Positions 1-51,334 of a DNA stretch of 64,000 nt are shown here, piece after piece. A program made the translations under genes and the position numbers. Source of the DNA: Azolla caroliniana (Eukaryota; Plantae; Polypodiophyta); contig JBHGNT010000008.1 of the NCBI GenBank assembly GCA_043228905.1, positions 682,001 through 746,000 of the forward strand. Direction: 5' to 3'. Position 1 is the stretch's first letter. The number at the start of each line of letters is the position of its first letter. The notes below the pieces were generated by a model. It was not told the origin of the DNA. It saw only the letters and a list, made by a program, of their open reading frames with translations, and searched no databases.

Positions 1-47
1 GTCCCTCCTCCTTTCTGCACGCAAGGGCGTAGCAACCCTCGACATCT

Positions 48-65
48 TGGTGAACCCGACGTGAA
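48..65 (+). promoter_or_regulatory. Primer-binding site complementary to tRNA-Trp 3' end
   Basis: TGGTGAACCCGACGTGAA, whose reverse complement TTCACGTCGGGTTCACCA matches the eukaryotic cytosolic tRNA-Trp(CCA) 3' end as I recall it. It lies 3 nt after the LTR end, and the same 18-mer recurs at 38237-38254. Confidence 0.85.
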
Positions 66-87
66 AGAGGCGGCAGAAGAGCAGGAA

Positions 88-2214
88 ATGAGGGGGTCGG
101 ATCTCGCAGAGGCCATGGCTTCGGCCGTGGATCGGATTGTAAACGCGCGCGAGAGCACCGGTGCCCTCGACAGAGCTATTGAGGCGGTCGTCGGCACGAT
201 CGGCCGGTTCGATGGGAAGGATGCCACGAAGTATTTGGCGTCCTACGGTGCAGAGATGCTGATGCGGGACATTCCGGAAGAAAGGCGTCTTGCCGGATTT
301 CCCCGAGTGGCGATGCCGAGCATCCATACGGAGGTGCTCGAGGTGCGGACGGAGAGCCGTACCTGGGAGGAGTTCGAAGGTCGGCTCCTAGAGAAATACG
401 GGCTGGACGACGCGCTCCGGCTTTCGAAGCGAAGGTTCATGGAATGGGTGGAGTCCCCGGGGAAGGGAAGAAACGCGTCGGCGCTCCTCCGGGAGTTCGA
501 GGAAAACTTTGCGCGCCTTTCGGCGCTTGACCGAACCATCCTGGACACGAGCCGGGTCTTGCTGTTTGTCAAGTCGGTCGACGAGCGGGATCGGGAGCAA
601 GTGGGCTTCTTGCTGGAAACCGAAGACGGGCTCACTACCGACTGGGCGGCTGTCAGGAAGGTCTGTGGCCGTTTCGACAAACGGCGAGAATGGGCGGATA
701 ACGGGGCGACCGGGTCGGGCTCGGTCGCAGGAAGGAAGCTCGAACCAGCGCCACAGGTGCGCAAGGAAGAGACCCGGGAGTGGTTGGAAACCGGTTCGGC
801 TTCGACCGGCGTAGTCAGAGGCTCAACCGGAGGAGCGGCGCTGGAGGAATTGACGAAGGCGATAAAGGACCTCCAAATCGCGCAGGCCCGAAGGGAAGGA
901 GGCGAACCGGCTCGTGACCGACGGCCGGCGGCAGGAAACAGGTGCATGTGGTGCGATGAAGTCGGCCACATTCGGAAGGACTGCGGCGACTTCGCGGAGG
1001 CGCTGAGGAACAGGGTGGTGTACCTGTGGGAAGGACGGGTGCATGCCAGCGACACCCGAAGGGCCCTGAGCCGAAACGACGGAAAAGGCTGTATGAAAAG
1101 GGTGATGGAAGAGGCGGCGGCCCGACACGCGGAAACCGTCCACTACTCGGCGTCGGCCGGCATTCGAGTCGGGGGCGGCGAGGCCCGGAGGGAAAGCAAA
1201 GCCGGATTCTGGCCAACGGTGCTGGAAGGCCTTGCCGATACGAGGATGAAGAGGGAGGAATCGGACCGTGCGGAGAAACGGGTACGGGAGATGACCGGGT
1301 GGAGCGACCCGGTCGAGGAAAGGACGGGCTTCGTGGAAGCTGCTTGCCAGAACTACGAGGCTCTGGTAGAAGAGAAGCGGGTGGGGAGACCCGGGACGAC
1401 CGGGCCCTCACAACGATACGAGACCCGGTCCGGGCCACGACGGGACGAAGCCGGCGGGGCCGGTACGCAAGATAAACCCCAGAAGGGCGGGTACCGTCTG
1501 GGGACGGAGATAGAAAGGACCACGGACTTACGAAAGGTCCTGGAGGAACGGATCCTCGACAGCAAGGTGGAGCTGTCGTTACGAGAGGTGCTGGGAATCG
1601 CCAAGAAGGAGTTCCACGACTCCATCGTGGACTTGGTGAAACGGAAGAGGCTGTCGACGGAGACAGAACCGGAAAGACCGGTGGAAGTGCGGACGACGCA
1701 CCTAGACGACATGGCGCTGGGAGACGAGTGGGCGGAAAGCCACTATTCGAGACCACACTGGGCCCGAGCGACCACGGAAACCCCGGTGAAGGTCGGCGAT
1801 GTCCAGGAACCGGTGATAGCTTTGGTGGACCACGGATCGGAGATCAATTTGATGTCCATGGACTTCTATAAGAAGGGCAAATGGCCGATCAACACCAAGC
1901 ACGGGTGGAAAATAAGGGCAGCAACGCGCGCCACCGAGGAACTGCACGGGGCCTGTCCGAATGTGTGGGTCAAGATTGGCGACGTCGAGATTGACCAACA
2001 CTTCTTCGTGCAGGAGACGTCTTCGCACCCGGTCATTCTGGGAGAACCGTACATTACGGCGGCGCGGATGGAGACCAAAGTGCTGGACAATGGTTCGGCC
2101 TACGCGAGGGTCAAAAGCCAAGACGGGCGCCATTCGGTCCAGTTTCTGACGGTAAGGCCGAACCACGAACGTAACCGTGATTCCCTCGGTTCCGAAAACC
2201 GAGAGGATTTTTAG
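88..2214 (+). CDS. gag: Gag + aspartic protease (ORF1 of gypsy element)
   Basis: ATG at 88 (MRGSDLAEAM) matches the paralog start MKGSELAEAM at 38279. CCHC knuckle CMWCDEVGHIRKDC. Protease motifs ALVDHGSEINLM and VILGEPY. Confidence 0.92.
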   Translation: MRGSDLAEAMASAVDRIVNARESTGALDRAIEAVVGTIGRFDGKDATKYLASYGAEMLMRDIPEERRLAGFPRVAMPSIHTEVLEVRTESRTWEEFEGRLLEKYGLDDALRLSKRRFMEWVESPGKGRNASALLREFEENFARLSALDRTILDTSRVLLFVKSVDERDREQVGFLLETEDGLTTDWAAVRKVCGRFDKRREWADNGATGSGSVAGRKLEPAPQVRKEETREWLETGSASTGVVRGSTGGAALEELTKAIKDLQIAQARREGGEPARDRRPAAGNRCMWCDEVGHIRKDCGDFAEALRNRVVYLWEGRVHASDTRRALSRNDGKGCMKRVMEEAAARHAETVHYSASAGIRVGGGEARRESKAGFWPTVLEGLADTRMKREESDRAEKRVREMTGWSDPVEERTGFVEAACQNYEALVEEKRVGRPGTTGPSQRYETRSGPRRDEAGGAGTQDKPQKGGYRLGTEIERTTDLRKVLEERILDSKVELSLREVLGIAKKEFHDSIVDLVKRKRLSTETEPERPVEVRTTHLDDMALGDEWAESHYSRPHWARATTETPVKVGDVQEPVIALVDHGSEINLMSMDFYKKGKWPINTKHGWKIRAATRATEELHGACPNVWVKIGDVEIDQHFFVQETSSHPVILGEPYITAARMETKVLDNGSAYARVKSQDGRHSVQFLTVRPNHERNRDSLGSENREDF

Positions 2215-5200
2215 AGAGGACTGCCAAGGCGTGGGGCCGCGACAGTCCGGACACCCCGGGAAAACCCCACACCTGTACGATAAAACCGAAGAAATCTTGT
2301 ACCATAGGTAGGGAATTTTTGTTCTCCGACAGCGGAGCGTGCACGACAGTCGGCATCGGCGGCCAAGAGAAGAGAAAGGCGGAGGGGAGACTTCGAGCGT
2401 GCGGAGTTCTCGGCCCTGACGAGGAAATCAACGGAACCGTGGAGGCGGTCTCATTCGACGACCCCTTGGGAATGCTGGGAAAGGTAGTCGAAGAAGGCCT
2501 TAACGAAGACCGGACGATACCGGTGTGTTCCGAGGAGATGTACGAAGTCATCGCGGACTTCGGTCGAGGGCTCGAGTCAGTTCGGACGGCCCACGTGAGC
2601 ACCAAGTACAAGACTGTGGACCGGAAGGTAAGGCCAGTCGCGGCACCCTTACCGGAGGACAGCGCGTCGAGAATCAAAGGGGTTGCATCGGACCCTAGTC
2701 TACGAGATCCGGCCTGCATAGGACACACCTTCACCGACGAGACGCTCCGAGAGCTCAAAATCGGTGGGGGCGGGTTCCTACTGCCGGCGGAGGAAGACCG
2801 GTTTCGGAGAATGCTCGGAAGGCACGGGAAAGCCTTCGCATTCTCGCCGGAGGAAATCGGGTGCGTTGACCCGACGATCGTGGAGCCGATGGTGATATTC
2901 ACGGTACCGCATGTACCATGGAATCTCAAGCCAATCCCGGTTCCGAGAGCTCACATCCCGAAGTTGATGGAGCTGCTGAGGCAGAAAGTTGATATGGGAA
3001 TTCTCGAGCCGTCGAGCGCCCCATATTCGAATCGATGGTTTACCGTACCGAAGAAAAACGGTTCGTTGCGCTTCATCCAGGACCTGCAGCCGGTCAATCG
3101 AGTGACGATTCGGAACGCAGGGATCGGACCGACCATAGACGAGTTCGCGGAGGCCTTCGCCGGAAGGTCAATTTACTCGGTCGGGGATCTATACTCAGGG
3201 TACGACCAGTTCCAGCTAGCCGTGGAGAGCAGAGACATTACGACGATGCGAACTCCCCTCGGCCTAGTTCGGATGTGTACACTGCCGCAAGGAGGGACCA
3301 ACTCGGTGGCCCACATGGTGAATGCGATGAACAAGGTTCTGAGGGACTGTATCCCGGACATCACCATGCCGTTTCTGGACGACATCCCGATCAAGGGATG
3401 CCCGGTGGAAGAAAAGGACGAGACGATTGGCCCGGACGGATGCCGGCGATTCGTGGTAACGCACATCGACGACTGCGAGAAGGTGCTACAAAGGCTAGAG
3501 GACGCGAGGCTCACCTTCTCGGGGGAGAAGTCAGCATTCGGGCAGTCGGAAATCATGGTGGTCGGACATTTATGTGGACCATATGGCCGGAAACCGTCTC
3601 CGGCAAAGATAGAAGCCATCTCCGCGATGAAGCCCGACTGCAGCTCGGTCACGGAAGTACGGAGATTCCTGGGGGCATGCGCGTTCTACCACATATGGAT
3701 CCCGCATTACGCACACGTCGCGGAGCCACTGTACGGGTTGCTGAAAAAGGGGCGAAGGTTCGAATGGCTAGACGAGCACGCGGAATCGGTCCGGAAGCTG
3801 AAAGAGGCTCTTGCAGCGGCACCGGCACTTCGGAAGGCGGTATACGGGAAGGGTACCCCGGTATTCATAACGGTGGATACCAGTCCGACCGGGATCGGAT
3901 GGGTCGTGAACCAGGGAGACGAGGACGGCAATCGGTTTCCGATCCGATTCGGCGCGAAAGTCCTCAGTGAACGGCAGCGAGGATATGCCCAGGTTAAACG
4001 CGAACTCTGGGGTATTGTTTCGGCGGTTAAGACCGACAAAGACTACCTGATAGGGACAGAAGTGATCATCGAGACGGATTGCCTGCCGATTCTCGGTATG
4101 GTTTCCGGATGCGCGACTCCGGACCTGGCGATGCTCAGGTGGATAGCGTACATCAAGTCCCTGGACCCGGAAATACGACACATTTCCGGGAAAGACAACG
4201 CCATGGCCGACATGCTTTCAAGAGCGAGGTTCGACGACGAGGGCGGCATGGTTTCGGAAGACGAAGAAGTCGGCGTGGATTTCTTCGAGGCGGCATACAT
4301 GACGACCGACGGGATGAGCACTCCGGCGCTTAACGAGTTCGACGCGAGCAAGTACGACGGGGAGTGGCTGCAGATCGGCGGGTTTTTGAAGACAATGACG
4401 CCCGATGCGTCGTGGACGAAGGACGAGGCCAACCGGATCCGGAAGAAAGCATATCGATTCTTTCTCCGAGATGGGCATTTGTGGAAGCACCCGAAGAAGA
4501 GGAACGGCGTCCCGCTCCGGGTGGTGGCGATGAAGGAAGAACAGGAGGAGCTACTGGCGGCCTACCACGACAGCCCTTGGGCTGGACACCGTGGAACGTG
4601 GGCGACATTTGAGAAGCTGAAGGGGAAGTACTGGTGGCCGGGATTGTACCGGGACGTGCATCGGTTCGTGTCAACTTGCGAGAGTTGTCAGATGCACTCG
4701 ATAGTCCGACACCGGGACGGGCTTCGCCCTACGTACCCTTTGACTATCCACTTCAAATGGATGGTAGATCTAGTGACGATGCCGATGGGGGTAGGACAGA
4801 TGCGGTATCTGGTCCTAGCGCGGGAAGACCTGACGAACCAGGTGGAAGGCCGAGCCCTTCAGAATAAGACGACCGCGGCCGTGTGTCGGTTCCTGATCGA
4901 AGACGTGATATGCCGGTACGGGTGCGTCGGGAAGATCGTGGCTGACCGAGGGGAGTTGGACACCGAGGAAGCCGCGGAGCTGTTTGATCGGCTGGGAGTC
5001 AAACTCTCGCTCACCACTGCGTACAACCCGGAGGCAAATGGAAAGGTGGAGCGCGGACACGGACCGATCGTTAAAGCGCTGGTTCGGGCATGCGGGGGCC
5101 AAATCGGTAACTGGCCGCGACTTCTACCTTATGCTTTGTGGGCCGACCGGACTACGCACAGTTCGGTAACCGGGTACATGCCGACAGAGCTCATGTTCGG

Positions 5201-5702
5201 CCAGAAGCCGATCATGCCGATGGAACGAACAATCTCCTCATGGGCAACGGTCGACTGGAGGGACGAGATGAGCCGGGAGGACTTGTTGGCAGCGCGTATA
5301 CGACAACTCGAACGGAGACCGGAGGACGTGGAGGCGGCTGCAGAAAGGATCCGAGTGGCGAGGATAAAGAACAAGGCCAGGTTCGACCGAACGCACTGAC
5401 TCCGACCGAAGAAGATCGAACAGGGTGACTGGGTGCTCGTCTACGACAGCAGCCTCGACAACCAGCACCGAGCAACGCGGAAGTTCGCACGGAGATGGTT
5501 CGGGCCGTACACGGTACAGAGCGCCAACGACAACGGGACGTATCATCTGGCGGAACTCGACGGTACGAGAATAGCGATACCCGTGGCCGGGAAGAGGATC
5601 AAAGCTTTCAAGAAGCGGCACGACGACGAACCCGACCCGATTCTCCTGGACAGCAGCGACGACCGATCCGAGGCCGAGGAAGGGCCGGCAGGCGAAGAGT
5701 AA
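2211..5702 (+). CDS. pol: Pol (RT-RNaseH-integrase) in the -1 frame, with one premature TGA at 5397-5399
   Basis: The frame is open from the ORF1 stop region. RT: DLYSGYDQF, LPQG, FLDD. RNase H: DTSPTGIG, RELWG, TDC, ADMLSR. Integrase: HHCC, WMVDL, ADRGE, NGKVERGH. The GPY motif (WFGPY) lies in the same frame after the TGA, and the frame ends at TAA 5700-5702. Confidence 0.93.
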
Positions 5703-5774: not shown

Positions 5775-6477
5775 TGTCGTGAAGAAAACCGCCCACAAGG
5801 GGAATCGGAGGAACAAGGCGTGGGGGAAACGGCTCTACACGCACACGCGCGCCAAGAAGTACCTAAGGACGAAGTAGGTACATACGAGGATCCTAGGTGG
5901 GTAGATTCGGTTGGTATGCAGTTAATGCCAAACGGCCTCTTGACGGGATATAAAAGGAAGAGGAAGAATAGAAGTGGGGTATCTCGCGCGGAGAGGACGA
6001 AGTGCTGCCGAACCGATTTGGAAGCTCCTCTCTCACTCCTGCTTTCTCTGTTTTCTGCTCCATCGCGTACCTGTGCAGGTTTCGAGGAGGCTTGCGCTGT
6101 TCCGTGGAACGCCCCGAGTGCGTCCTGCAGCACCTCCGACCTGTTTTCCCCTTCCCGTGCGTCGCGACATACAGGGGTCGGCATCTGTTCGCCGCCCTGT
6201 TCGTTTTCGTTAGTATCTATTTCGTGCCCTACCGTGGGTTGTAACGCTTTAGCCTGTTATTTTCTTGCATTCATAAGTACATATCTTTCGTGGTTGCGTC
6301 CATCTGCGTCGGCGTTTATTTGCGATCTCTGTTTGTTGGGCCGTGTCCCTGTGCAATCTTCGGTTCTGTGTAATCGGGTCTCTCTCCTCTTCTTCTCTCT
6401 CTCTCTCTTGCTCTTCGGTCCAAGACCCCCGTGGTCCCTCCTCCTTTCTGCACGCAAGGGCGTAGCAACCCTCGACA
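5775..6477 (+). repeat. 3' LTR (703 bp) of gypsy element
   Basis: Follows PPT AGGTGGGGGCGGA. TGTCG...CGACA inverted termini, TATAAAAG at about 5948, and its last 44 nt are identical to window bases 1-44. Confidence 0.95.
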
Positions 6478-9400
6478 CCGTGATCAGATTTGTGTAATCT
6501 CCATTCTTCTGCAGCCTTAGATGATAACCATCCAAGAGACTCAACAGAGCAATGATACAAAAGATTAGTAATCACTTGTAACAACAATGTTTGACCCTTT
6601 AAACACCAATCAATCCACGGTTGTTCTCCTGTTTGTAGAGGTAAGGGACCTTGCATCAATGGAATATTTCGTAGTTGTTGCCAAATAAACCCATAATTAG
6701 GCGGGATGTGTAATAATTGTCATGCTTCAACAAACTCCAAAATTCTTTGAGATGGAGCCTCAACTATATCTCCCACCTCTTTGACCCCCAAACGAAACAA
6801 ACAATTAAATTGAGAGCGTAATCTCTCCTTTCCTGGCCAACATAATAACCGAGAAGAAACAAGTAACTCTTTTTGCACAGAATTACGATGCTCTCTACTA
6901 GATGATGGTTTCCATACACATAACAAGAGTGCTTCTTGCCATGAGGTAACCAAGTGTTGAACACATGTAGAGCCCGGAATCCTAAGTGAAATACATCCAT
7001 TTAGTAATTGCCACCATGAAGCCTTAATTGTTGTCCTCCCATGTGTTAAACCCTTGTTCTCAATGAAATATTGAACAATAGATATCTATGGTTGTGAGTT
7101 TGAACACATGTCTTCTAATAATGAAAATCTACGAGCCATCATATGCTTAGATAAATTCAATACTCCAGCTCCCCCCAAGCGCTTAGGAGTTGCTAGATGA
7201 TTCCATGCAACCCAAGTGATTCCCATCTTATCCCTTTTCTTCCACAACAAATATCGAAGAGGTTGCAAAATAGAATGCAAAGCCTTCTTTGTCCACGGTA
7301 GCAATGGCAAGTATTATAATATCATAGGTTCCATAATACATTATACAACCTTCAAACGTACATGAAATGGCCAAGATTGTGATTTCCAATACATGAACTT
7401 ATCCCTCAACTTACTAGACATCCATTCAATCAATTGACCATTTGTAACATTCATTCCTAATGGATAGCCCAAGTGTCAAAAAATAGAGCCTTTCTTCACC
7501 ACGGATCGTTGTCATCCTAAACATTCCAAATCCCTTTCAGTACATGATATTAGACAAGACTTCCTCCAATTAATATGTAATCTTGAAGTCAATGCAAATT
7601 GGTTCCATACAAGCATCCCCTTCTCAAGATTCTCTCGTGAGGCTTGTAGAAACATGAAAGAATCATCGGCCAAAGCTTGTGCAATTAGTTGCCCTCCAAA
7701 CGGAAGGTGTAGACCCACAATATCACCATTTGTCACAAGCATTGATAGCATCACTAACAAGGGATGAGTAACAATAGCAAACAACAACGGGCTAATAGGG
7801 CATCCTTGACAAACAGTTCTTGTAAGGGCAATATCTGATGTAACTCCTCCATTAAGCATGACTCGAGACACCGCATCTTGTCCTAATAAAAATATGAGGT
7901 GAGACATACGAGGTCCAAAGCCCATTGTATGCATTAACCCAGAAACAAAGGACCAATTAACATGATCATAAGCTTTCTCCAAATCTAATTGCACCATAAT
8001 CAAATCTTGATGAGTGTTTCGAGCATAATCCATGGCCATTTGAACATTCAACACATTATGCAATATATTCCTACCTGCAATAAAACCATATTGGGTAGGA
8101 TGTATCAACTTTGGAAAATACTTTTGTAATCTATTTGCCAAGACCTTTGTAAATATCTTATACAACCCCCCCATCAAAGAAATAGGTCTCCATTGATGAA
8201 ATGACTCTGGAGATGCCACCTTTGGAACTAATTTAATTAGACCAACCTTCCAAGCTTGAGGCATATGACCAAAATCCCAAGAATGTTGAAACATCAAAGT
8301 TAAGGGGCCCTTTAAAATGTGTGAATATTGCTTAAAAACTTCATTTGTCAAGTCATCCCAACCAGGGCTCTTACCACTAGGAAGATGCCTTAAAACTGTG
8401 TCCACCTCATCCTCAGTGAAATCCGCATCCAATTCATGACTAATGAGATCATGCACAATACATCCCACCACATCATAAAACTCATGATGTGCTCTACTCG
8501 CCTCATTTGTCATTAACAATTGTGAGCCAATCAACTCCTTGAAGTAATGAACACATATGTCAATTATTTTAGTAGGATCCACTATCCATTCATCACCTTG
8601 CTTCACATGTACCACATTAGATCGAGTATAAGTAGGATGTAACACCTAGAAAAACAAATGGGATTGACATTGATTATCTATGAGCCCATCCCTCAATTGT
8701 CACATCTTCGCATAATGATAACTTTGGCATTGCAACTGAGAAATAATAACATGCAATTGACTTTGGATATCCAAAAGCTCCTCATCTAAAGGTGCACGTA
8801 TCAATAATGCATTACACCTAGAGAGAACTTGTGAGAATTTTAGAAGAAGACCTCTTCTTCGTTGAGCATTAGCTACTCCATACATACGATGAACAATCTT
8901 AATATTTCGTAATGTGATATCCCATGCTTTAACTCCTTTAAGATTCACTTCTTGTGAAAAATTTACCAAAATTTGCTCCATGAGAGAATCAAAGTGAGGT
9001 TGAAGCAAAAGAGAAGAGTTAAAGCGTAATGGAGGCTTTCCAAGTAAGGATTTATACATGTCAATTGCATGACCACAAATCTCCAAACAAATAGGAAAGT
9101 GATCTGAAGTTCCTACATCTTGTAAAACTGCCATACGAAGTGATGTCAGTAAAAACGAATCATTGTGCATCACATACATTCTATCTAACCGACTCCATGT
9201 TTGTCTATGTTGAGCGGATTGGAAAGTAAAACCTGGATAATTCCCATGCAACCATGTCCAAACATCCAACTTCAAAACCTCCATAGCCAATGAATCCCAA
9301 GCAAGTTGCTCAGGATCATCCATGATTGAATGTTCAGACATAGATTGAGATGCATCAACACACATGTTAAAATCACCCATAAGTAATCCTGGATGGCCCA

Positions 9401-11138
9401 CACATAGGGTTTGACGGAGTGAGCCCCATAATGCAATATGTTGAGTGGCTTGGTTAGGGGTATAAATCCCAACCACACACACAACCTCGCCAAAAAAAGT
9501 GATTTCTAGAACCAAAAACCGACCATAAGGATCATTGTGCACCACTTGAGAAAAATACTCATCCCGCACGATTAATACCACACTAGAATAATGATTATTA
9601 AGATGTTCTACATAGAATGATGAATATCCACACAAATGAACTGTGGATCCTGCTAACTCATGACATTAATGCTCAATTGCACATAATATATCCCATTCTT
9701 TACTTAATAAAGTTTGCCATAATATATACTTCTTATGAGGACAACATGCCCCTCTCACATTCCATGTTACCACTTTCATTCAGTCAACAATGTTATGGGT
9801 GCACTTGCTCCTTTAGAGCAACCAATGTCTTGAAACTAGTCAAAGCATGTTCCAATGCTACTTATGGATTTTCATGCACCACATCCTTAGAGTTGTCTAT
9901 CGAACTCTTTTGTTTAGGTTCTCCCGCTTGACGAAAACCTTGAGAATTCAATGAATTTACAACCTGTCCCAATGAATCAAAAATTGAAGGTGAAGGGGTA
10001 ATCCCTTATCCCTAAATTGTCTTTGCTAAGGAACTTTTCGAGGACCCTCCCTAGTTCCTGAATTACTTTTCCAAGTAGTCTCACGAGTAGTGGGCAAACT
10101 ATTACGTTGCATATTCATTAATTTGCCCTTCGACTTGCCCTTAACCTGATGCCAATCCTTTTCAACAATATCATTACTAGTTCTATCCATCGGTTTTTTC
10201 CCCTTATCTATAACCACCAAATTTTGTTTTTCCATATCCATAGATTGAGTTCCCTTATTCTTAGGGCCCAAACCTTGAAGTGAAACCTCTTTATAACTTG
10301 CTCTAGATGATGTTCCTTCATCCATAACAACCACCATATCTGACACACCAACATCTCTCCCAACCCCTTCCTTACCATTCCCTTCATTAGGAACCTCTAT
10401 AGTTGAAGGACAATGACGATGGCATTCCGCCATAAAGTGACCCCATTCACCACATCCAAAACAGTGACATGCAAATGTCTCCCACTTCAATTTAAATAAA
10501 AGTCTTTTCATTCCAGGTGTGTTCATACGCACCCATCTTGGCCTCTTACGACTTGTATCCCATAACACACAAAACTGCACTTATTTGTAACATTTGCATG
10601 TGGAGATACCAACATTTTACCCATTTGACTCATCAACTCTGGTAAAACTGGCCATAAAAAAGCATGCTTACAATCCACTGTTACCCAAACATGGCATTCT
10701 TGTTTCAACAAAGCATGATAGTCCACAACAGGACCAATCGTTTATCAAAAAACATTGGAACTTTAGCCAATAGTGCACTTCGATGTTCTGGTGAACGAAA
10801 CACTACATCATAAAACCCTCGTGGTCCTGCATATATATTTTCAACACAATTTGGTGACACGATTGTATTCAACCATTGTTTAATCCAATTAATGTATGGG
10901 AGTTTCCCAGTAAAAAACAATATAACTACACGATCATAGAATACATCAAAAGATTGCAACACTACCGTAGCATCAACATTCACATCATGTACATCCTCAT
11001 CAATGCATTCTTTCGCTGCATTTTCATTTTCTTCCACAATATCAGAAAATAAGGTATTGGCAATTCCCCATAAAGTATCCCAATTACAATTATCCTTATC
11101 AACCTCATCTACATGTATTACTTCGGCATATGTTGCTT

Positions 11139-29186: not shown

Positions 29187-30024
29187 TAGCGGGATTAACA
29201 ATGTTCCATAATACATGAAGCCTAATTATGTTACATGTTATTTGTTATTGTGCAAATGTAGATTGGTTCCACGTTGTGCAGGGGTGCAACATTAGCAAGG
29301 AAGCTTTTCTATATTATGAGTATTCGTGAAGGACACATTTTTGTTCACTCGGCTCACCCTCTTCTGAATAAGTATATAATATCAGGTAGAAATATTTACT
29401 CTCTCATCACAAGAACATGCCAATACATTTTGGGTAGCCTTTTCATCAGATAATTTTTATTTTCAGTGAGTTCGTATGCATCAAAGCTTTTATTTAGTAG
29501 GCTTATAGAACCTTAAATAACTTGGATAAAGGAGACATCTATAGAACCTTTTTGGCAAAGGTGAGTTTTCCAATCAATGTTTTGGCAAAACCTTAAATAA
29601 TTTGGATAAAGGAGATAATTTGGGCCAAACACAAGTTATTCTAGAATGCTAATGTTGTGTAGAGAAGAAGACTAAGTATTAAATTTGATAACCACTTTGA
29701 GGAGGAAAGACAAGGTAACCAAGAATAATGTATAAATAGTGACAAACATGACTTATGGGATCTATCAAAATGTTACAAACTGCCTTCTTTATAGATTGGG
29801 GATTATTTTAGAATGATAATGAAGTCGATTCCGAATCTCTGTGTCTGAATCTTCCTTGAGAGTTCTGTTCTGTTGTCTAATACATAGATGATGGAGAAAA
29901 ATGCAGTGGGTTTCTTTCTCATTATCCGCAGATACTCTTCAAAATGTACAAAAGACCCCACGATGACGATGATCGGTTGCAGGAAGACACACCATTGTAA
30001 TTTTCGTGAAAGAACAAGATAACG

Positions 30025-32001
30025 ATGCTGCCTCAGCCTTCATCCAGGAACCTAGTGTACAACATGCAGAACAGTTCAAGAGACAAAAACAGAGCTTCTG
30101 CTCTGCGACTGCGTGATTTCCTACATGAAAATGGATTCTTAAATGCCAATAGGTCATTGATTGCTGATTGTCTCGTGTCGATGTTTTGTGAAATTGGAAG
30201 CATTCCTGATGCACAAACAAGCTTTGATATGTTAGATTCCAAGAGCAAATCAGCATGGAGCTCCCTCATTATTGGATACCTCCAATGTGGCCACATCTCA
30301 GAATCATTCACCCTGCTTGAAAAGATGAAAGAAAAGTCACTCCATCCCAGTGCACACACATTCGTCGCATTATTGAAGGCTTGCAGTACGTTGAAAGATC
30401 TTCAGCAGACCATTCAACTTCATGCTCACCTCTCAGCTAAGGAATTAGATAGGAACCTCTTCATTGCCAGCGCTTTAGTCGATACATATGCCAAATGTGG
30501 TGCACTTGCAAAAGCACAAGAAGTCTTTGACAACCTTCCACACCGAGATGTTGTTGTGTGGACTGCATTGATTGCAGCTTATGTAGAACAAAAACGTGGG
30601 CAGGAAGCGTTGGATCATTTCAAGGAGATGCAATGCAGGGGTGTCCTTCCAAATGCTGTTACATATGTTTGCAGCTTGAAAGCTTGTGGCATCATCAGGG
30701 CCAAAGATAAAGGCATCAAGATACACGAGGAGATTTCCATGAAAGGTCTCATTGCAAAAGACCTTGTTCTTGCTGGAGCAATAGTTGATATGTATGTTAA
30801 ATGTGGTATGCTAAAAAAAGCACGGGAAGTGTTTAATGGCCTTCCAATTCATGATGGAATTTCATGGAATGTACTAGTCACAGGATATGCACAACATGGC
30901 CATGGTGAGGAAGCGTGGAATTGTTTTCAACAAATGCAGCTTGAAGGTTATGCTCCAGATGTTGTTACATATTCCTCTTGTTTAAAAGCTTGTGGAAGTA
31001 TTAAAGATAGAAGGAAAGGAAAAGAGCTACATGCTGAAATTTTGAGAAAAGGCTTGTTGGAAAGACACACAGTACTTAATAATGCACTCTTGGATATGTA
31101 TGCGAAATGTGGATTGCTAATTAAGGCACAGGAAGTGTTTGACAAAATTCAAGTCCGTAATGTAGTATCATGGACTGCATTGATCGCAGGTTATGTCGAA
31201 CATGACCAAGGTGATGATGCTCTCAACTGTTTCGAACAGATGCAGTCGCAGGGGATCATTCCCAATGCTGTAACCTTTGCTTGCAGCCTCAAAGCCTGTA
31301 GCATGACTGGTTCTGCTGGAAAAGGCATACAAATACATGCTGAGATTGCTAGAATGGGGTTATTGAAAGCTGACCTCATACTCGGGAATACATTGGTAGA
31401 TATGTATGCAAAATGTGGGATGCTAACAAAATCCCAGGAGGTGTTTGATTGTATCCCACAGCATAATGTAGTTTCATGGACTTCACTCATGACAGGATAT
31501 GCTCAGCTTGGAGAGATTGAGAACGTGAACTCTGTCTTTCAGAGAATGAGAGATGAAGGCAGTAAACCAAATCCAGTCACCTTCGTTAGTGTTCTGAATG
31601 CTTGCAGTCATGTGGGCTGGGTAGATAAGGGCCAGACATACTTCGAGGCCATGAGCAAAGCATATGGTATCACACCGACTCTTGAGCACCTTAGTTGTAT
31701 GGTTGATCTTCTTTGTCGTGCAGGACAATTGAATTTGGCAGTAGTAATGTTGAACAAAACACCATTCCATCCAAGTATTGTAATGTGGTTAACAGTGTTG
31801 GCAGGTTGCAGAAAGTGGGGTAATGTAGAGCTTGGGAGACATGCATTTCAGCAGGTAATAAGAATGGACAAAGAAGATGATTCAGCTTACCTTTGTATGT
31901 ACAACATCTTTGTTGATGCAAACATGAATGAGGAAGCACAATGCATTGAGGCAATGAGAGTTAGGAGGAAAGCACACAGAAAAAGAAGGCACTGTGGATA
32001 G
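30025..32001 (+). CDS. PLS-class pentatricopeptide repeat protein with E domains and no DYW (probable organellar RNA-editing factor)
   Basis: Intronless 658 aa ORF with repeated P-L-S triplets (LVDMYAKCG...VVSWTALIAGY...PNAVTF.CSLKAC). Ends with L2/S2 (VLNACSHVG, CMVDLLCRAG) and E1/E2 (WLTVLAGCRKWGNVELG, AYLCMYNIF), then a stop. Confidence 0.95.
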   Translation: MLPQPSSRNLVYNMQNSSRDKNRASALRLRDFLHENGFLNANRSLIADCLVSMFCEIGSIPDAQTSFDMLDSKSKSAWSSLIIGYLQCGHISESFTLLEKMKEKSLHPSAHTFVALLKACSTLKDLQQTIQLHAHLSAKELDRNLFIASALVDTYAKCGALAKAQEVFDNLPHRDVVVWTALIAAYVEQKRGQEALDHFKEMQCRGVLPNAVTYVCSLKACGIIRAKDKGIKIHEEISMKGLIAKDLVLAGAIVDMYVKCGMLKKAREVFNGLPIHDGISWNVLVTGYAQHGHGEEAWNCFQQMQLEGYAPDVVTYSSCLKACGSIKDRRKGKELHAEILRKGLLERHTVLNNALLDMYAKCGLLIKAQEVFDKIQVRNVVSWTALIAGYVEHDQGDDALNCFEQMQSQGIIPNAVTFACSLKACSMTGSAGKGIQIHAEIARMGLLKADLILGNTLVDMYAKCGMLTKSQEVFDCIPQHNVVSWTSLMTGYAQLGEIENVNSVFQRMRDEGSKPNPVTFVSVLNACSHVGWVDKGQTYFEAMSKAYGITPTLEHLSCMVDLLCRAGQLNLAVVMLNKTPFHPSIVMWLTVLAGCRKWGNVELGRHAFQQVIRMDKEDDSAYLCMYNIFVDANMNEEAQCIEAMRVRRKAHRKRRHCG

Positions 32002-34349: not shown

Positions 34350-37334
34350 ACTTGACTCTTTGTACCTCTCGTACGATAACAACGATGTCTCATCAAGAAT
34401 AGTTCTGAGACCTTCGAGAGCCGGATCGACCCGGCTATGTCGAAACCGGAGACAACACTACTTATTCGATTCGGCACATCGGCATTGTTCCATTTGGCAA
34501 AGAAGGTAACCAAACTTACATTGAGAATGTCTTGTGTGTACCGACCATCACGAAGAATTTGGTTTTAGTTGGCCAAATAGTGGAGCAAGGCATGCAAGCT
34601 CGATTTTACCAAGGTGGTTGTTTCATCGAAAAAGAGGGTCGACTCATCGCTTGCAATCGAAGGGAAGGTCGAATGTTCATTCTCGATTTGCATGAGAATT
34701 GGCCATGTTTGCAAAAGGCACCAAAGCCGACATAGACATATAGTTGTGGCACAAGAGGATTGGCCACATCAATCTCAATAAACTCAAGGCAATGCAATCT
34801 AAAGGAGTCGTCATCGGGCTCCCGATCTTCAAAGAGAAGGAGATTGAAGGCGTATGTGCAGCCTTCCAATTCAGCAAGCAACACTGGCACCCGTTCCTAA
34901 AAGAGAGGAACGTGGGCAAAGGCGTACTCAATGTAATTCATTCCGATGTACGGGGACCGGCCCAAATGAATACATTTGACGGATGCCGATACTACGTGGC
35001 CATTATCGACGACTTCTCCAGGCACACCTGGATCTACCCCATGCGACAAAAGAGAAATTCAAAAGAGAAGTCGAAATTCAAAAGAGAAGTCGAAAAGAGA
35101 ACCGGTCGTCATGTATGATGTCTTCGGTTGAATGGAGGAAAAGAGTACTTCTCCAATGAATTTTCGGCTTTTCTTTAGAAAGAAGGAATTCGGCGAGAGT
35201 TTTCGTGTCGACGAACATTGCAATAGAACGGAGTAGCCGAACGCAAAAATCGACACATCCTCGAAGTAGGACATGCCATGATGAATGAAAAGAATATGCC
35301 AAAGTCATATTGGGCCGAAGCAGCAAAATACTGTCATCTACCTCATGAACTGGTGCACAACATTCGGTGTGCACGAGGTTACCCCGCACAAAAAGCACTA
35401 TGGGAAGAAGCCGGATCTATCCCATGTAAGGATATTTAGTTCACTTGCATATGTGCACATTCCCGACGAAAAGCGACACAAGCTCGACCCTAAGTTGGAG
35501 AAGTGTATCCTCGTAGGATACTACTCACTGGAGCAAAAGCGGTACAAGTGCTATAACCCCTCTACTCGGAAGGTTCATGTAAGTTGAGACGTTGTCTTTG
35601 ACGAATTGACATCATGGTATGAACCCGAACCGACTCCTTCCGAACCATTTACGAACACAGAAGAAAGCCGATTATGACAAGGCTTAGTGGGCCACAAGAG
35701 CCCCCGAGCGACCAAAGCACATCTCCGCCTAGTCTGAAGATGGACAAAGGGAAGGCGAAAATGCCGGAATATGAAGACTATCAATTTCACAACAACGAAT
35801 CGACTCACTCCCTCGACATTGAGCGCGGTGGCTTCGATGTACCTATCATGAGGACACTTTGTGTAAAGAAAGCCATTGCCACTGCAAACAAAAAACTTTG
35901 TTGGTCCACCCATGAGAAGAATCCTGTTAGCCGATTCGGTTATAACGACGATATGGCATACCACTATGCCTTTATGATAAAGGTGGCGATAGTTCGTGAA
36001 CCGGAAAACTTTTCCAAAGTAGCGGAGGATCCACGGTGGGTCGAAGCAATGAACGAGGAGATGCATATACTATGCAAAAACAAGACATGGGATCTCGTCC
36101 CCCAGTCACCGCAAAAGAAGGCAATCGGCTGCAAATGGACTACAAAGTGAAGTATAATGTCGACGGTTCCATCAACCACTACAAAGCTCGACTTGTAGCG
36201 AAAGGATACGCACAAACACATTGAGTCGACTATGAAGAGACCTTTGCCCTGGTGGCCAAGATGACAACTGTGCGAATCGTGATTGCACTTGCTGTGGCGA
36301 AAGGGTGGCACCTCCATTAGATGGATGTCAAGAATGCCTTTCTTGAAGGCGAATTAGAAGAGGAGGTGTACATGGTGCAACCACCTAGCGTCAAATCCAA
36401 CATTCATTCGAAAGCCGTTTGCCAACTCAAGAGGCCTCTCTATGGCCTCAAGCAAGCACCACGTGCTTGGCATTCAAAGATAACACAATATTTTCATTGA
36501 ATCGGCTTTCGAATGTCGAAATCCGACAACTCCCTCTACACAAGAAGCGATTCAGGAAGTTTGATTATCATCATTCAGTATGTGGATGATTTGGTCATTG
36601 GAGGTGAACATCTAATCAACATTAACAAGGTCAAATCCCTCCTCTCTAGCAAACTCGAGATGATGGACATGAAGGAGCTCCATTACTTGGCATCGAGGTA
36701 ATTCGGACTCCAATCTTCATTATTATCTCTCAACGACACTACATCCTCAACTTGTTATACAAGTTCAAGATGATTGAGTGCAAATATGTGGCAACCCCTC
36801 TCGATCGAAACCTCAAATTGGATGCCGACTCCGGCACGAAAGAGTGCAAGCCGACTCAATATTGACAACTAATTGGGAGTCTCATCTACCTCACGATCAC
36901 TCGACCCAACCTGAGCGATCCGTGCGGCCTCCTTAGCCAATTCATGCAAACTCCACGTGATATCCGTTTGGATTGTGCTAAGTGAGTATTATGATACGTG
37001 AGTGACACAATGGATTGTGGTATTCTATACGAATCAACCACACCAATTCGACTCGAAGGGTACACAGATTCCGACTGGGCCAGCTATAGAGCCGATCAAC
37101 GATCGACCTCCAGATTTGTTTTCTCCCTTGGCAACAGAGCGATTTCGTGGAGTAGCAAGAAGCAGCCGATTGTTGCACTTTCGAGCATTGTGGCCGAATA
37201 CAGGGGTGCACCTATGGCTACATGTGAAGTCGTTTGGTTGAAGTGAATCTTGAAGGATACGGGCGTTCCCATCGAGGATCTGATTCCCCTCTACTGCGAC
37301 AACATGAGGAATATTTATCTAGCTCGGAACCCGG
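34350..37334 (+). mobile_element. Degenerate Ty1/copia internal region (PR end, IN, RT, RNaseH), cut at ...LARNP by a gypsy LTR
   Basis: WHKRIGH, HSDV, IDDFSR, KLDPK.EKCILVGY, YKARLVAKGYAQ, YVDD, GYTDSDWA. Many stops and frameshifts. Confidence 0.9.
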
Positions 37335-37808
37335 TGTCGTGAAGATTCCCGGCATGACGAAGGAAAAGGGGTCGAGAGCGTGTGAACGAGGTTTCCGATG
37401 CGAGATGGAGGACCGATCGGGCAAAGTGTGGGAATAGGAGTGTGCCAATAGGCACAAAAACAAGGGCCATAGGGCTAAATTGTAAATAGATGTTAAATAC
37501 TTATGTACTAGGTAGGCTAGTTAAAGGGGTACTTTATGTCCCCACACGTAGAAAGAATATTTTAGTATGAGGAAATCTAGGGAAATCCCTGACAGCCGTG
37601 GTTGCCTTTAATCGTGATGTAATGATCTCCCCTTGTCCTATAAAAGGGGAGGTTTGGGGACTGTTTTAGGGATCGATGTATGGGGAGGAGAAGGTGTTGT
37701 TGGTTAGAGCTCAGATCTCTCTCTCTCTCTCTGTGTGCTCTATGCTGAATGAGTGACGTCTTTGCTCGCTCAGGAAGCCCGTGCACTCTCGACCAGAGGG
37801 TCATCTTC

Positions 37809-37861
<53 letters not shown>

Positions 37862-40800
37862 TCGGAGCGTGCATCTCTGTCACCGGACGAGTCCGGTTAT
37901 ACTTACTTCTCTTATAATCCATTTCCCTTTTGTTGTGCCTTTGCCTTCTCCGTGTCAAGACTGCTTCTACTTATTCCTACTTGTTGCTCGTGGTTCCCTG
38001 AGTCACGAGCCTACATTCTCACTATTTATTGTCTACGACCGGATGGGAACATTTTTGTCCCAGTTCCCTTGCATTCGTTGTCCGGCACCCGAGAATGATC
38101 CGGATCGGATATGCAATAGGCAATCGATCTACTGAAGAACTCTCGAAGAGCATCCTACTTCGACCGGTTCCTTGGTCCGTGACCTCGGTGGCCCTGCCCC
38201 GTTTCGACATGCACGCGCGGATTTCCGCGACATCTTTGGTGAACCCGACGTGAATAGGGGTGATAGAGGTGTCCGAAGATGAAAGGAAGTGAACTAGCAG
38301 AGGCGATGGTGGTAACCGTCAATCGTATAGTAAATGCGGGGGAGGGTACAGATACCCTTGACAAGGCCATAGAGGCGATAGTCGGCATGATAGGCCGGTT
38401 CAATGGGAAAGATGTGACAAGTTACCTAGAGGCCTATCGGGCCGAAATGATAATAAGAGATATTTTGGAGGATAGTCGGTTGTCTGGATTCTCACAGGTG
38501 GTAACACCGGGCATCCACGTGGAAGTGCAGGTAGTGTGCCAGAATTGGGTGGAGTTCGAGAAACGACTACTAGAAAAGTATGGATTCGATTACTCGCTCT
38601 AGTTGTCGAAGCGCGAATTCATGGAGTGGGTCGAGAGCCCCGAAAAGGGGAGGAACACTTCAACGATCCTCCAAGACTTCGAGATGCGGTTTGCTCGTCT
38701 CTTAGTGTTGGATCGGACAATGCTCGATATGAGTGGTATTCATCAAGTTTGTTGATGTGGATGATCGAGAGAAGGTGGGCCTTCTACTCGAGACAGACGA
38801 GGGTCTCTTGACAAACTGGGCCGCGATGAAGAGGGTTTGTTGCACCAATGAGGTGACGTCTGTGGTTGCACCGGTTGCTGGTAAAAAGCCAGGAGAAGCA
38901 GTCCCACCGCAATCGGAAGAGATGAGGAATTGGCTTAAGTCAGGGATGATTCTAGCTAACGTGGTTGACGGACCAGCCGGAGGCGCAACACTCGAAGAGC
39001 GGACCAAGATGGTGCGGGACCTCTAGATTGCACAGGTTGGGAGGGACAACGAGGGTCAATCACGCGACCAAGGCCGCCGTTCGAACAAAAGTGTATATGG
39101 TGTGACGTCGTCAGTCAACGGTCAGAGGAACTGTGCTGAATTTACAAAGGCACCTAAGAATAACGTGGTGTACCTTTGGACGGTCGGGTGCATGCCAGTG
39201 AGACACAGAGACCCATAGGGGTGAACATCGGCCGAGGCGGAATGAAGAGGCTGATGGAGGAGGCTGCAGGCTGACATGTTGAGACTATTCACTACTCGAC
39301 TTCCGCTGGGATCCGGGCAGGAGGAGAAAGGAGCACCAATTCCGAATTCTGGTCGCTAGTGTTGGAGGGATTGTCTGGGGTAAGACTGAGGAAAGAAGAG
39401 GCGGATTGCGCGGAGAGGCGGGTCCAGGAGGTCCCTAGGTGGAACAACCCGGTCGAAGAAAAGACTGGCTTCATGGAGGCCGCGTGCCAAAACTTCGCGT
39501 AGAAGACAAATGGGCCGTGTTGAGCGAGCAAGCTCAACCGGATCCGGATCGGCATTCGGAAGGATGAGCTAGATTTGTATTCGAAAACAACCAGCCGGAT
39601 TGGGGAGACGGATCGGAGAGCCGGATTCGAGCGGGAACCAGAAGCTTAGTAGTAGCCTAGACTACTAGGTAATCATTGTCTCGTAGTTAGTGTCAGTCGC
39701 ACGTAGGAATATTGAAGTACCTGTCAGTACTTCTGTTAGTCCTTTGTGGACTTGTATAAATAGTGTTGTTATAGCACATTGTATAAAAAGAGTTTTAGGC
39801 TTATTTTTAAACCTACTTTTACGTTCTACTCTCTCTGTCTCTGTCTCTCCCGTGTATACTCTTTGTGCATTAAGCTTCTCCATTAAACCTTCATCTTATT
39901 CTCTGTTGCTATCCGGCAGAGCCGGTTCTGTCTAACGCTTCCGCATGTTAACATTCACATGGTATCAAAGCGCGAGGGTTGAGAGCCTCTGTAGCCGACA
40001 CTTGCTTTCATAGACGAACCCTTGAACCCGGTAACAACAGACAGAGAGAAGATATGGACAAAGGAATGGCAAGTTCACTTCCAACAGAGAAGCTCGACCG
40101 GAACAACTACGCGTCCTGGTCGTACAAGAAGCACCACTACCTGTTGGGGCATGGATATTGGAGCTTCGTGGAAAGAACAAACGAGGTAGCGCCGGAGCCG
40201 CCACACGAGGACTTCCCAGTATGGGAGCAAGGAGCGAGCCGAGTATTGTACTGCCAGGCGTCTTGTGTGCACGACCAAATGCTCGACTACATAAAGAATG
40301 CAAAAACGCCGAAGGAGGCCTAGGGAAATCTGAGGAATATTTTCGCTGCGAGTACCACAACCCGTAAGTTGCAGCTCTGGCAAGAGCTGAACAACATCCA
40401 ACAAAGAGACATGTCGGTTACGGACTACACCACCAAAATAAAGGAGATTTGTGACGCGCTCGAGTCCATCAACGTGACAGTGGACGAAGATGAGATGGTT
40501 CAAATTTGCCTCGGTGGTCTAGCACAATGGTACGAGCCAATCCGAACGACGATCTGCACCTTGGAGAAGCTACCGTCCTTCTTCGACTTACAATCAATGT
40601 TGATGGTCAAAGAACACCACGCGAGTGGGTTGAGGACCACTCAATCGGACAATCGGATGTTGTACACGGAGTCGGATCGGCCCCGTGGACGTGGAGGACG
40701 AGGTGGGTCGGCACGCAATGGAGGCAGCCGGCAAGAGCAGGACCGAAGGCACATAGACAATGCTGACAGTAATTCCGGACCCTCCACAAGCAGGGGGAGT

Positions 40801-42196
40801 CAAAGCGGCATCGGGAACCGGCAAGGAAAGGCCGACACGGAATGCTGGTATTGTGGCAAAAAGGGCCACAGGGAAAGCGAGTGTTGTAAGAAGCGCGCCG
40901 ATTCGGACAAATCTGGATCCAGAACCGGGAAGACCGGAAAGGGGCCAACCTTCGTGATGAAGCACAAGGCTAACTCGATGAAGAAGACTACTTCCAAATC
41001 GGAGGAAGTATGGTATGTTGATTCCGGAGCGTCCAACCACATGACGAGCCATGAAGAGTGGTTCTCTTTTTTGGAAAAACTGGAACAACCGGGGATTGTC
41101 AAAACTGGAGACGACACCCCTCACCCGATCGTGCATGTCAGAGAAGTCCCTTGAAGCCATGCCGGACAAACGGGGAAGCTAATGAACACACTACACGTTT
41201 CGACTATCACAAAGAACCTGGTGTCGGTTGGACAAATCGTCGACCAGGGGATGCAAGTGCGGTTTACGCACCTTGGGTGCTTCATCGAGGAAGAAGGCCG
41301 GATAATTGTGCAAGGGCACAGAGAAGGGAGGATGTTCATCCTCGAGACTAATGACGTCAACACTGCCATGTTTGCCAAAGGACAAAAGATTGAATCACAC
41401 ATCGATCTCTGGCACAAGCGGATCGGCCACGTCAATTACCGGAGGCTTCAGGACCTACAATCGAAACAGGTTGTGTTCAACTTGCCGAAATTCAGTGGTC
41501 GGAAGGGCCAAGTTTGTGAAGCCTGCCAAGTCGGGAAGCAATATCGGCTTCCATTCCCCCCCGAACGAAACCGGAGCCATATCAAGTTCGATTTAATCCA
41601 TTCGGATGTATGGGGACTGACACAAAACATTAGTCTTGGCGGGAGTCGGTATTTCGTCTCCTTCATTGACGACTACAACCAACACACGTGGATCTACCTC
41701 ATCGAGAAGAAAAGCGAAGTCTTCGAATGTTTTTGGAGCCTTCAAAGCTTAGTTGAACAGGAAACAGAGAGGAAGATCAAGTGTCTGCGGTCGGATGGCG
41801 GAAAAGAATATTTTTTCACCAATTCATCCATTATCTGCGGCAAAAGGGAATTCAGAGAGAATTCAGATGTAGATACACACCGAAGCAAAACGGTGTAGCC
41901 GAAAGGAAGAACCGGTCGATTGTCAATGTGGCAAGGGCAATGTTAGAGGAGAAGAGAATGACCCAATTCTACTGGGTTGGGGCAGTCTGGACGACCGTCT
42001 ACATCCAAAACCTGATTGGAGACAAGGTGTCAGCACATGAGTTGTATTTCCGGCGGAAGCCGAATTTGAGGCACCTTCGGATATTCGGTAGCATAGCATA
42101 TGTGCATGTACCGGATGAGAAGTGGAAGAAGCTAGATCCGAAGTCGGAGAAGTGCATCCTAGTTGGTTACTTGCATCAGCAAAAGGGGTATAAGTG

Positions 42197-42264
42197 TGTT
42201 AAGAATTGAGTTTGTGGTGATTGCAATGCAACGGAAGATGAAAGACTATGTGTGTGTGTGTAAC

Positions 42265-42300
<36 letters not shown>

Positions 42301-47707: not shown

Positions 47708-48166
47708 TACATTGTGTTGTGTTAACCATATGGAAACTCTTGTGAACTATCCACATTTGATTGTGAACTTGTATATATTGTAGAGTCTAGTGTATAGTAC
47801 ATTCAAGAATATTCTAGTCATTAATATATTCTAGAATTATTATGTGGTATATTCTAAACGGGTATATTCACGAGATATTTCTCGAGTATATTCTAGAGAT
47901 AATCAATCTCGAAAATTGTATAAATACTTGTAACATCCTTGGTCCCTTTCAAGGGATTCAACACCAGTCAATTGACACATCAATCTAGTATTCTCATTTC
48001 ACCTCATCTTTGTCTCCTTGATCTTTATTTCTGTCTTCATGCCCCCTCATGTCACTCACAACATCTAGAGTTCCTAGTCTCGTCACATCTAGCTCCAAGT
48101 TCATCCATTGCTCGTAGCCCCATAATTTGTGCTCCGTCCCAGTCCGTGCTTGGTGTGTCAGTGACA
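47708..48166 (+). mobile_element. Probable orphan LTR fragment of another family, ending ...GTGACA
   Basis: AT-rich segment with TATAAATA (about 47919) that is unrelated to the flanking LTRs. It ends in GTGACA exactly where the outer copia coding sequence resumes. Confidence 0.55.
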
Positions 48167-51100: not shown

Positions 51101-51334
51101 GGTATGAAACTCGGAGCGCGCCAAGGAAGAATGATGGAGGCCTGGTCAGGCTACATGAAAGAACGAAGTTGAAGGGCTTCCGATTGAGCTCGGAGATAGA
51201 GAGGGCGACAGACCTATGAAAGGGCTTGGAAGAACGGATCCTTGATAGCAAGGTAGAGCTCTCGTTGAGAGAAGTGTTGGGAATTTCAAGGAAAGAATTC
51301 CACGACTCCATCGTGGATCTAATGAAACCACGAG

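Follow-up and report, generated by a model that had tools for sequence, protein, structure and literature searches.

How does a gypsy retrotransposon make its reverse transcriptase (RT), RNase H (RH) and integrase (IN) when the gene for Gag and protease (PR) closes with a stop codon ahead of them? The question is raised by an element at the start of a 64,000-nucleotide stretch of Azolla caroliniana DNA (the window), in which the Gag-PR gene ends in G_GAU_UUU plus a stop and Pol lies in the -1 frame. Judged from sequence comparison, it is very probable that Pol is made when a predicted pseudoknot causes a minority of ribosomes to slip back by one base. The original prediction, that Gag-PR is made in full and RT-RH-IN through -1 frameshifting at G_GAU_UUU, is strongly supported by the conservation of the site in relatives; the stimulatory structure it proposed fared less well.

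What appears to be new is the position of a putative -1 signal, with its predicted pseudoknot, after the protease in a plant gypsy lineage; it is a variant of known recoding. If true, it would settle how the enzymes are expressed in an abundant lineage of mosses, liverworts and ferns whose organisation is listed as ND, and account for gene prediction treating ORF1 as a separate hypothetical protein. Dozens of natural variants (in heptamer, stop position and stem length) of one frameshift pseudoknot for plant ribosomes would make rules linking structure to efficiency testable. Further, a one-to-one output of protease and Gag would pose a question familiar from retroviruses, namely what restrains early processing.

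The element and its junction

The element, on the forward strand throughout, is a Ty3/gypsy LTR retrotransposon, with LTRs, a primer binding site (PBS) and the domain order PR-RT-RH-INT all present. The 3' end of the 5' LTR (1..44) is 100% identical to 6434-6477, the remainder preceding the window, and the 3' LTR (5775..6477, TGTCG...CGACA) has a purine-rich tract upstream and CCGT downstream, which fits NCGN. The PBS (48..64), which we take to be the complement of tRNA-Trp, has a motif following the LTR-ending CA that recurs in about 30 related loci. A scan of 200 loci (viral contigs) for a matching tRNA gene returned none; the matches were apparently due to chance and included no tRNA-Trp.

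ORF1 (88..2214, frame 1, open over 1..2214) encodes Gag-protease and contains a CCHC knuckle (943-984), a DUF4100 domain found with Pfam and the protease active-site Asp (1828-1830) within a D-H-G motif. The protease of the window copy gave no Pfam match and was assigned through its LVDHGSE motif and through relatives that are named Peptidase A2 or carry Asp_protease families. ORF2 (2205..5702) lies in the -1 frame and comprises a divergent linker followed by RT (~3045-3569), RNase H (~3765-4154) and integrase (from ~4533), recognised by Pfam in gypsy order; of solved relatives, Ty3 Gag-Pol is the best (E 6.8e-52). In the window copy the SH3-like integrase tail is lost to a premature stop at 5397-5399, a codon that is open in 10 sister loci. 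The 64-kb window holds one junction of this Gag-PR/Pol type.

As originally described, ORF1 ends on a slippery site and a stop, CGA GAG GAT TTT TAG. The heptamer G_GAU_UUU, in the ORF1 frame, occupies 2205-2211 and the TAG 2212-2214, the latter falling within a 6-nt spacer (2212..2217). The -1 relation of Pol and the distance to its first ATG were likewise borne out: Pol occupies frame 3, open from 2181..5399 and reading GFLERTAKAWG from the heptamer, and its first ATG lies 260 nt after the stop (about 260 had been predicted). GGATTTT occurs 13 times in the window (7 on the forward and 6 on the reverse strand), so the significance of this site rests only on the comparison with relatives.

Conservation of frame and heptamer

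Relatives were sought by protease peptide patterns, the heptamer not being used, and the best 80 of 167 loci were analysed. Because the families are related to each other, locus counts are not independent events, and a single series of short-read assemblies supplied 75 of the 80. Scans found no relatives in viral contigs. Among these best 80 of 167 loci, 61 had a Pol match, Pol being in frame -1 with respect to ORF1 in 58, in +1 in three and in frame in none. The heptamer, whose conservation had been named as a check on the idea together with the frame relation, is kept as G_GAU_UUY or G_GGU_UUU in 65 of the 76 loci with an ORF1 stop, again among the best 80 of 167; four of the 76 (L023, L068, L073 and L077) gave no signal by either method.

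Outside a small clade with Pol in +1, 27 non-redundant junctions carry GGATTTT (23), GGATTTC (2) or GGGTTTT (2), and the 6-nt spacer is gap-free in the alignment of these families. ORF1 ends in TAA, TAG or TGA in 14, 11 and 4 of 29 families, respectively. In the same ORFs, the background usage is 287/442 for GAT among Asp codons, 105/224 for TTT among Phe codons and 116/442 for G before Asp, and the first G of the heptamer is the third base of 10 different codons. Similarly, of 120 protein homologues, 66 end in DF, 3 in GF and 3 in NF, and in a further 24 DF or GF lies five residues from the C terminus. Amino acids without a G-ending codon never precede DF/GF (0/93 against a background of 28%). 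A protein-only cause of the terminal D-F is ruled out, as the constraint extends to synonymous positions and to the base before Asp.

The Pol frame is kept open as well. Over the linker (339-465 nt in 25 families) it contains no stops, versus 198 and 312 in the other two frames, and linker identity to the window is just 18-59%. Left out of this count and of the tree were L078 (+1; decayed, with four Pol-frame stops) and L021, L035 and L051, which have no Pol match. The upstream limit of the open Pol frame is just 3 nt before the heptamer in L018 and L059.

The stimulatory structure and rival routes to Pol

The stimulator is likely a covarying H-type pseudoknot, as modelled from the relatives, with stem 1 starting 6 nt after the heptamer. 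In the window, predicted stem 1 pairs 2218..2225 with 2241..2248 and predicted stem 2 pairs 2231..2236, within the stem 1 loop, with 2265..2270. Stem 1 is weak in the window copy (6 bp, one C-A mismatch and 1 bp), and it is part of the minimum free energy (MFE) fold in just 20 of 29 junctions. Across families, pairing in stem 1 reaches 82%, against 26-47% for slid controls, and 9 of its 11 pairs show double changes. For stem 2, pairing with the partner from the same family gives a score of 16.0, versus 13.4 for partners from other families (0/20000 permutations) and 8.9 for downstream windows. The pseudoknot score, a simple pair count and not an energy, exceeds all 60 shuffles in 24 of 29 junctions, the exceptions being L021, L034, L035, L056 and L071. 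No Rfam frameshift element matched over 2100-2400 at E up to 10. An upstream hairpin (~2184-2207) was considered as a core part and rejected for lack of generality (mean z -0.58; in 5 of 29, z falls below -2).

The original prediction had named a different stimulator, a bulged stem-loop with an inner CCGG hairpin, like that of dianthoviruses and umbraviruses. That a real -1 shift is stimulated by such a stem-loop, perhaps paired with a distant partner in the manner of RCNMV and PEMV2, or by one of two folds that alternate, seems quite unlikely. The strands named for it exist and make up the window copy's MFE when pseudoknots are left aside, the inner hairpin is of similar strength in the closest relatives, and the heptamer and stop match the viral sites, the RCNMV heptamer being G_GAU_UUU. 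However, the fold of the stem-loop is not distinguished from chance (z -0.41; 70 of 200 shuffles do as well), and it starts 15 nt after the heptamer, versus the 5-nt spacer given for those viruses. Further, it excludes stem 1, which covaries; the inner hairpin, a competitor of stem 1, has little strength in most families, scores 7 or less in 14 of 29 junctions and is not conserved. The likeness to these viruses thus holds for heptamer and stop but not for their bulged stem-loop with its long-distance partner. The covariation that had been called for was found in stems 1 and 2 of the pseudoknot, and the core of the proposed outer stem (GUGGGG/CCCCAC) is itself stem 2.

Routes to Pol without frameshifting were also weighed. 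Splicing has a precedent in Ogre, where GAG-PROT is described as joined to RT-RH-INT in this way (PMC6317226), and a Pol-frame AUG is always present somewhere downstream for internal initiation or reinitiation. Yet the first AUG of -1 loci lies anywhere between 1 nt ahead of the stop and more than 300 nt past it, and an intron or leader would have no need to avoid stops in one frame only; these routes, with the overlap incidental, are very unlikely. Three RNA runs of a related organism, with 139, 88 and 252 reads, contained no splice joints, weak evidence given the low depth, the presence of both orientations and coverage of 12-13% of each run. Skips in single DNA contigs (depth ~50 versus totals of tens to hundreds of thousands, and no GT..AG ends in the rows listed) were read as single-copy deletions. 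Transcriptional slippage on the run of four to five T at the site could place Pol in frame in some mRNAs. This is highly improbable, as the run is just three in the GGATTTC-C family L065 and the signal is codon-phased and at a ribosome-type spacer from the RNA structure; further, no insertions or deletions are listed in the RNA reads, at low depth. Finally, the frame change could stem from a mutation of one base, or a fault of assembly, in an element with a single ORF, and the window copy does carry another inactivating change, the stop at 5397-5399. We give this reading virtually no weight: it is refuted by the frames of relatives (0/61 in frame among the best 80 of 167) and by the absence of indels in the four runs compared over 2000-2700.

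Programmed -1 frameshifting remains the preferred reading, in which an in-frame heptamer conserved at the codon level is joined to a predicted 3' structure at a short, fixed spacer. Most ribosomes would stop at the end of ORF1 and release Gag-PR, so that protease would be made one-to-one with Gag. A fraction would pause while Asp-tRNA occupied the P site and Phe-tRNA the A site; the latter tRNA would re-pair on UUU, and translation would continue as ...E-D-F-L-E-R-T-A... into Gag-PR-RT-RH-IN. G_GAU is a non-canonical P site, as in PEMV2, and GGAUUUU is reported to be active as a -1 site for PEMV2 in wheat-germ extract (PMC4737148). The stop directly 3' of the heptamer may help, as it does in PEMV2; it is not needed directly at the site because several families stop five codons later.

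Variants of the signal and comparison with known systems

In the sister families L050 and L055, Pol is in +1, ORF1 ends in AG_GUU_UUU and the spacer lacks one base; these features suggest -2 frameshifting, a +1 shift being the alternative. The Pol frame (-2 = +1) is open for 1154 codons in L050 and 1101 in L055, and in L050 a -1 slip would meet a stop at once. Among the nearest P0023 matches listed, no family ending in VF-D/Y was found beyond these two; the ends of new matches were not tallied. We consider it about an even call that an old lineage in non-seed plants, and probably fungi, shares one post-protease pseudoknot on which slip distance evolved, L050 and L055 having lost a spacer base and moved from -1 to -2 while the knot stayed and the junction peptide hardly changed. 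If true, a cellular genome would hold a natural -2 frameshift driven by RNA structure, on which the spacer-tension model could readily be tested. The proposal that the length of the spacer determines how far ribosomes slip, described from engineered spacers in reporters, would gain a natural -1 versus -2 pair. A similar site (RG_GUU_UUU) serves the -2 frameshift of arterivirus nsp2TF, which is, however, described as stimulated by a protein complex without RNA structure (PMC5644247, PMC4937337), whereas L050 and L055 keep the predicted pseudoknot. A distant relative, L201, has the same heptamer-spacer-pseudoknot geometry but a different, canonical heptamer, U_UUA_AAA; its spacer is 6 nt long, and a stem 1 of 10 bp without mismatch is combined with a stem 2 of 4 bp (0/200 shuffles). 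Its -1 frame is open to the contig end, and its contig carries no RT.

The window element looks like a member of the Phygy lineage, a non-chromovirus Ty3/gypsy group. Its nearest named homologues are unclassified Physcomitrium protein predictions, and relatives also occur in Riccia and Adiantum. Phygy elements carry a PBS for tRNA-Trp; here the PBS is conserved and its Trp identity presumed. No chromodomain or aRH was matched by Pfam in ORF2 or its tail, as expected for Phygy, and the coding region fills the internal part in Phygy-like fashion. The right flank CCGT fits the target NCGN given in the REXdb supplement (PMC6317226), the left flank lying beyond the window, whereas the inferred length of ~7.1 kb is below the 7656-9968 bp listed for Phygy (PMC6317226). 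As REXdb lists the Phygy polyprotein organisation as ND (PMC6317226; Neumann et al. 2019), it gives no description of the layout and signal seen here.

Other gypsy elements, some in non-seed plants, have overlapping ORFs, namely the Tf1/sushi group (including Tcn1 and PpatensLTR2) and Selgy (bioRxiv 2022.12.06.519325; PMC6317226), and -1 frameshifting is stated for most of Tf1/sushi (bioRxiv 2022.12.06.519325). In contrast to the window element, their break is given as GAG:o:PROT-RT-RH-INT, before the protease. Ogre/Retand of the Tat clade differ in being described with a spliced intron (Ogre) or an in-frame stop and no slippery-site overlap (PMC6317226). PEMV2 shares G_GAU_UUU with full re-pairing only in the A site (PMC4737148), and both PEMV2 and RCNMV share plant ribosomes and a stop at or near the site (PMC4737148, PMC5009743). 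Their stimulator is described as a bulged stem-loop with a pairing partner at the distant 3' end (PMC4737148, PMC5009743), whereas a local H-type pseudoknot is predicted here. A bulged stem-loop ~5 nt after the heptamer was not found in this family, in which the conserved structure there is a simple stem with a locally pairing loop.

In alpharetroviruses the protease is encoded inside gag and so is made with Gag, as predicted here. Rous sarcoma virus likewise places RT and IN behind one -1 frameshift with a pseudoknot stimulator (PMC5009743), but it differs in heptamer, retroelement lineage and host kingdom, and the window element has no envelope gene. The likeness to the alpharetrovirus gag-pol organisation is likely convergent.

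The retrotransposon and its reading frames

The element lies on the plus strand and runs from a 5′ LTR remnant at the window start, of which the last 44 bases are present, to a 3′ LTR at 5775–6477. The internal region is complete within the window and has the gypsy domain order. A CCHC knuckle, DUF4100 and a protease motif are found in ORF1, which terminates on G GAT TTT TAG (2205–2214). ORF2, encoding RT, RNase H and integrase, occupies the −1 frame, is open from 2181 and has its earliest ATG 260 nt beyond the ORF1 stop. The junction sequence, the frame relation and the ATG distance agree with the original prediction. The protease motif (1828–1836) reads D-H-G in most of the plant group and DSG, DTG or DGG in some distant relatives, the usual motif being D-S/T-G. 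The integrase tail of this copy contains a premature stop (5397–5399) at a codon that is open in 10 sister loci. Elsewhere, the window holds a short fragment (51191–51317) 82% like ORF1 1505–1631, a broken minus-strand LINE with endonuclease and RT matches (7512–9665), several decayed copia-like elements that are ~72% alike and lie in both orientations (34400–48900), and a 663-codon open frame (30010–32001) which by eye looks like a host pentatricopeptide-repeat gene.

Conservation of the junction

Related loci were collected by protease peptide patterns, and the best 80 of 167 were analysed; four stop short of the ORF1 stop, leaving 76. An in-frame G_GAU_UUY or G_GGU_UUU, at the ORF1 stop or five codons before it, was found in 65 of the 76. 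Neither this count nor the frame counts below represent independent events, since a single series of assemblies supplied 75 of the 80 loci and the families are related by descent. Two further loci carry G_GUU_UUU and one A_GAU_UUU. Eight have no heptamer by the in-frame test; a covariance model recovers the signal in four of them, and upstream damage accounts for the displacement in the three inspected, so that four of the 76 show no signal by either method. In five families (L065, L071, L072, L075 and L076), which the tree does not unite in one group, the ORF1 stop comes five codons later than the heptamer and falls at the top of stem 1 of the predicted pseudoknot described below; two of these use G_GGU_UUU.

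Among the 61 loci with a Pol hit, Pol is in the −1 frame relative to ORF1 in 58 and in the +1 frame in three, and a continuous gag-pol frame occurs in none. Across 25 non-redundant families the linker is free of Pol-frame stops, while the other two frames contain 198 and 312. In two families the Pol frame opens just 3 nt 5′ of the heptamer, so that the point of entry is fixed. The position of the first Pol AUG varies among loci. Four sequencing runs compared at the junction gave no indels there, and three RNA runs of low depth from a related organism, a weak test, showed no joints.

The proteins bear the same mark. A search with the ORF1 C-terminus returned 240 relatives; of those listed, the named proteins come from Physcomitrium, Riccia and Adiantum. 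Among the 120 listed, 66 end in DF, three in GF and three in NF, 24 have DF or GF five residues short of the C-terminus and two end in VF plus one residue; the other 22 end differently, many being spliced gene models or truncated. None of the residues lacking a G-ending codon (F, Y, C, H, N, D, I) precedes DF or GF (0/93 versus 28% background), so the first G of the heptamer is visible even without DNA. Among distant 50%-identity representatives, 6 of the 20 with a protease motif similarly far from the end finish in DF. The NF ends of P0090, P0101, P0118 and P0210 would fit an N_AAU_UUU heptamer. At the level of sequence, the junction signal is real and conserved.

A predicted pseudoknot as probable stimulator

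From 67 junctions with enough sequence, 29 with <85% identity were aligned; the first 46 columns are gap-free except for a one-base offset in two. Predicted stem 1 joins 2218–2225 to 2241–2248, with 82% pairing (26–47% in slid controls) and both-side changes at 9 of 11 positions. It is weak in the window copy, and common variants in other copies keep or strengthen it (2220 giving G-U, 2224 giving U-A). Predicted stem 2 joins a G-rich strand in the stem 1 loop (2231–2236) to a C-rich strand (2265–2270) located 11–16 nt beyond stem 1, and each family's own partner outscores both those of other families (0/20000 permutations) and downstream windows. In a de novo search for H-type pseudoknots, 24 of the 29 junctions outscore all 60 shuffles. 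Rfam has no match to the junction region.

The GC-rich stem originally proposed as stimulator has to be recast. Its strands exist, but the fold is no more stable than those of shuffled sequences (z −0.41). Its outer stem is therefore stem 2 of the predicted pseudoknot, and its inner hairpin, a competitor of stem 1, has little strength in roughly half of the families. Another hairpin (2184–2207), just 5′ of and overlapping the heptamer, is confined to close relatives.

From the observed layout, heptamer, spacer, covariation and open Pol frame we infer the slippage step: a programmed −1 frameshift at G_GAU_UUU is very highly probable, and one with the modelled pseudoknot as its stimulator only slightly less so. 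The pseudoknot would stimulate −1 slippage with full re-pairing in the A site only, as reported for GGAUUUU in PEMV2 (PMC4737148), and the output would be abundant Gag-PR and minor Gag-PR-Pol.

Divergent relatives and known systems

Distant DUF4100 proteins end ~140 residues past the protease motif, on LKV, GKV or GKA. The one examined as DNA, L201 (2483–2550), reads T TTA AAA GTC TAA at the junction, followed after a 6-nt spacer by a perfect 10-bp stem whose loop pairs downstream (0/200 shuffles). Its heptamer differs from that of the window family and is canonical (U_UUA_AAA), whereas the pseudoknot geometry is the same. The −1 frame is open as far as the end of the 2.7-kb contig, which lacks RT and is filed in a bacterial MAG; since the Atlas neighbours of its family are Streptophyta and Basidiomycota, the contig is likely a eukaryotic contaminant there, possibly of fungal origin. 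As judged from its sequence, L201 is independent support for the heptamer–pseudoknot layout.

Two sister loci, L050 and L055 (support 100/100 in a tree of 25 rows, with four junctions left out), place Pol in the +1 frame, where it stays open over 1154 and 1101 codons, respectively. Their ORF1 terminates on CAG GUU UUU NAC UAG, and the predicted pseudoknot is retained with a 5-nt spacer (junction regions L050:2835–2900 and L055:2497–2562). QVFD is the C-terminus of six listed members of one protein cluster, and QVFY that of two of the other, so the clade is not a single-contig error. The arterivirus −2 site is RG_GUU_UUU (PMC5644247), spacers 1–2 nt shorter favour −2 shifting (PMC3458567, PMC4937337), and the Pol-frame peptide RF-L/F-TRT matches GFLxRT of the −1 families. 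A switch to −2 frameshifting thus has about an even chance of being correct; the same Pol frame may instead be reached if ribosomes slip +1 on that U run.

The right flank, compatible with an NCGN target, the absence of a chromodomain and the Physcomitrium relatives make the element a candidate member of Phygy, a non-chromovirus Ty3/gypsy lineage. In REXdb the organisation of Phygy is given as ND, and no plant lineage is assigned GAG-PROT:o:RT-RH-INT as its prevailing type (PMC6317226, supplementary file 3). A full-text literature search brought up no paper on this signal, an earlier mention being possible in Gao et al. 2003 or in subscription papers on fungal elements, and PMC7175516 and PMC6911290 add nothing here. 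From a 2003 survey, a 2016 review reports plant cases in the +1 frame only (PMC5009743). Frameshifting by −1 is already known in gypsy elements, including the Tf1/sushi group with its moss member (bioRxiv 2022.12.06.519325); in that group the frame break precedes the protease, whereas in the window family it follows it.
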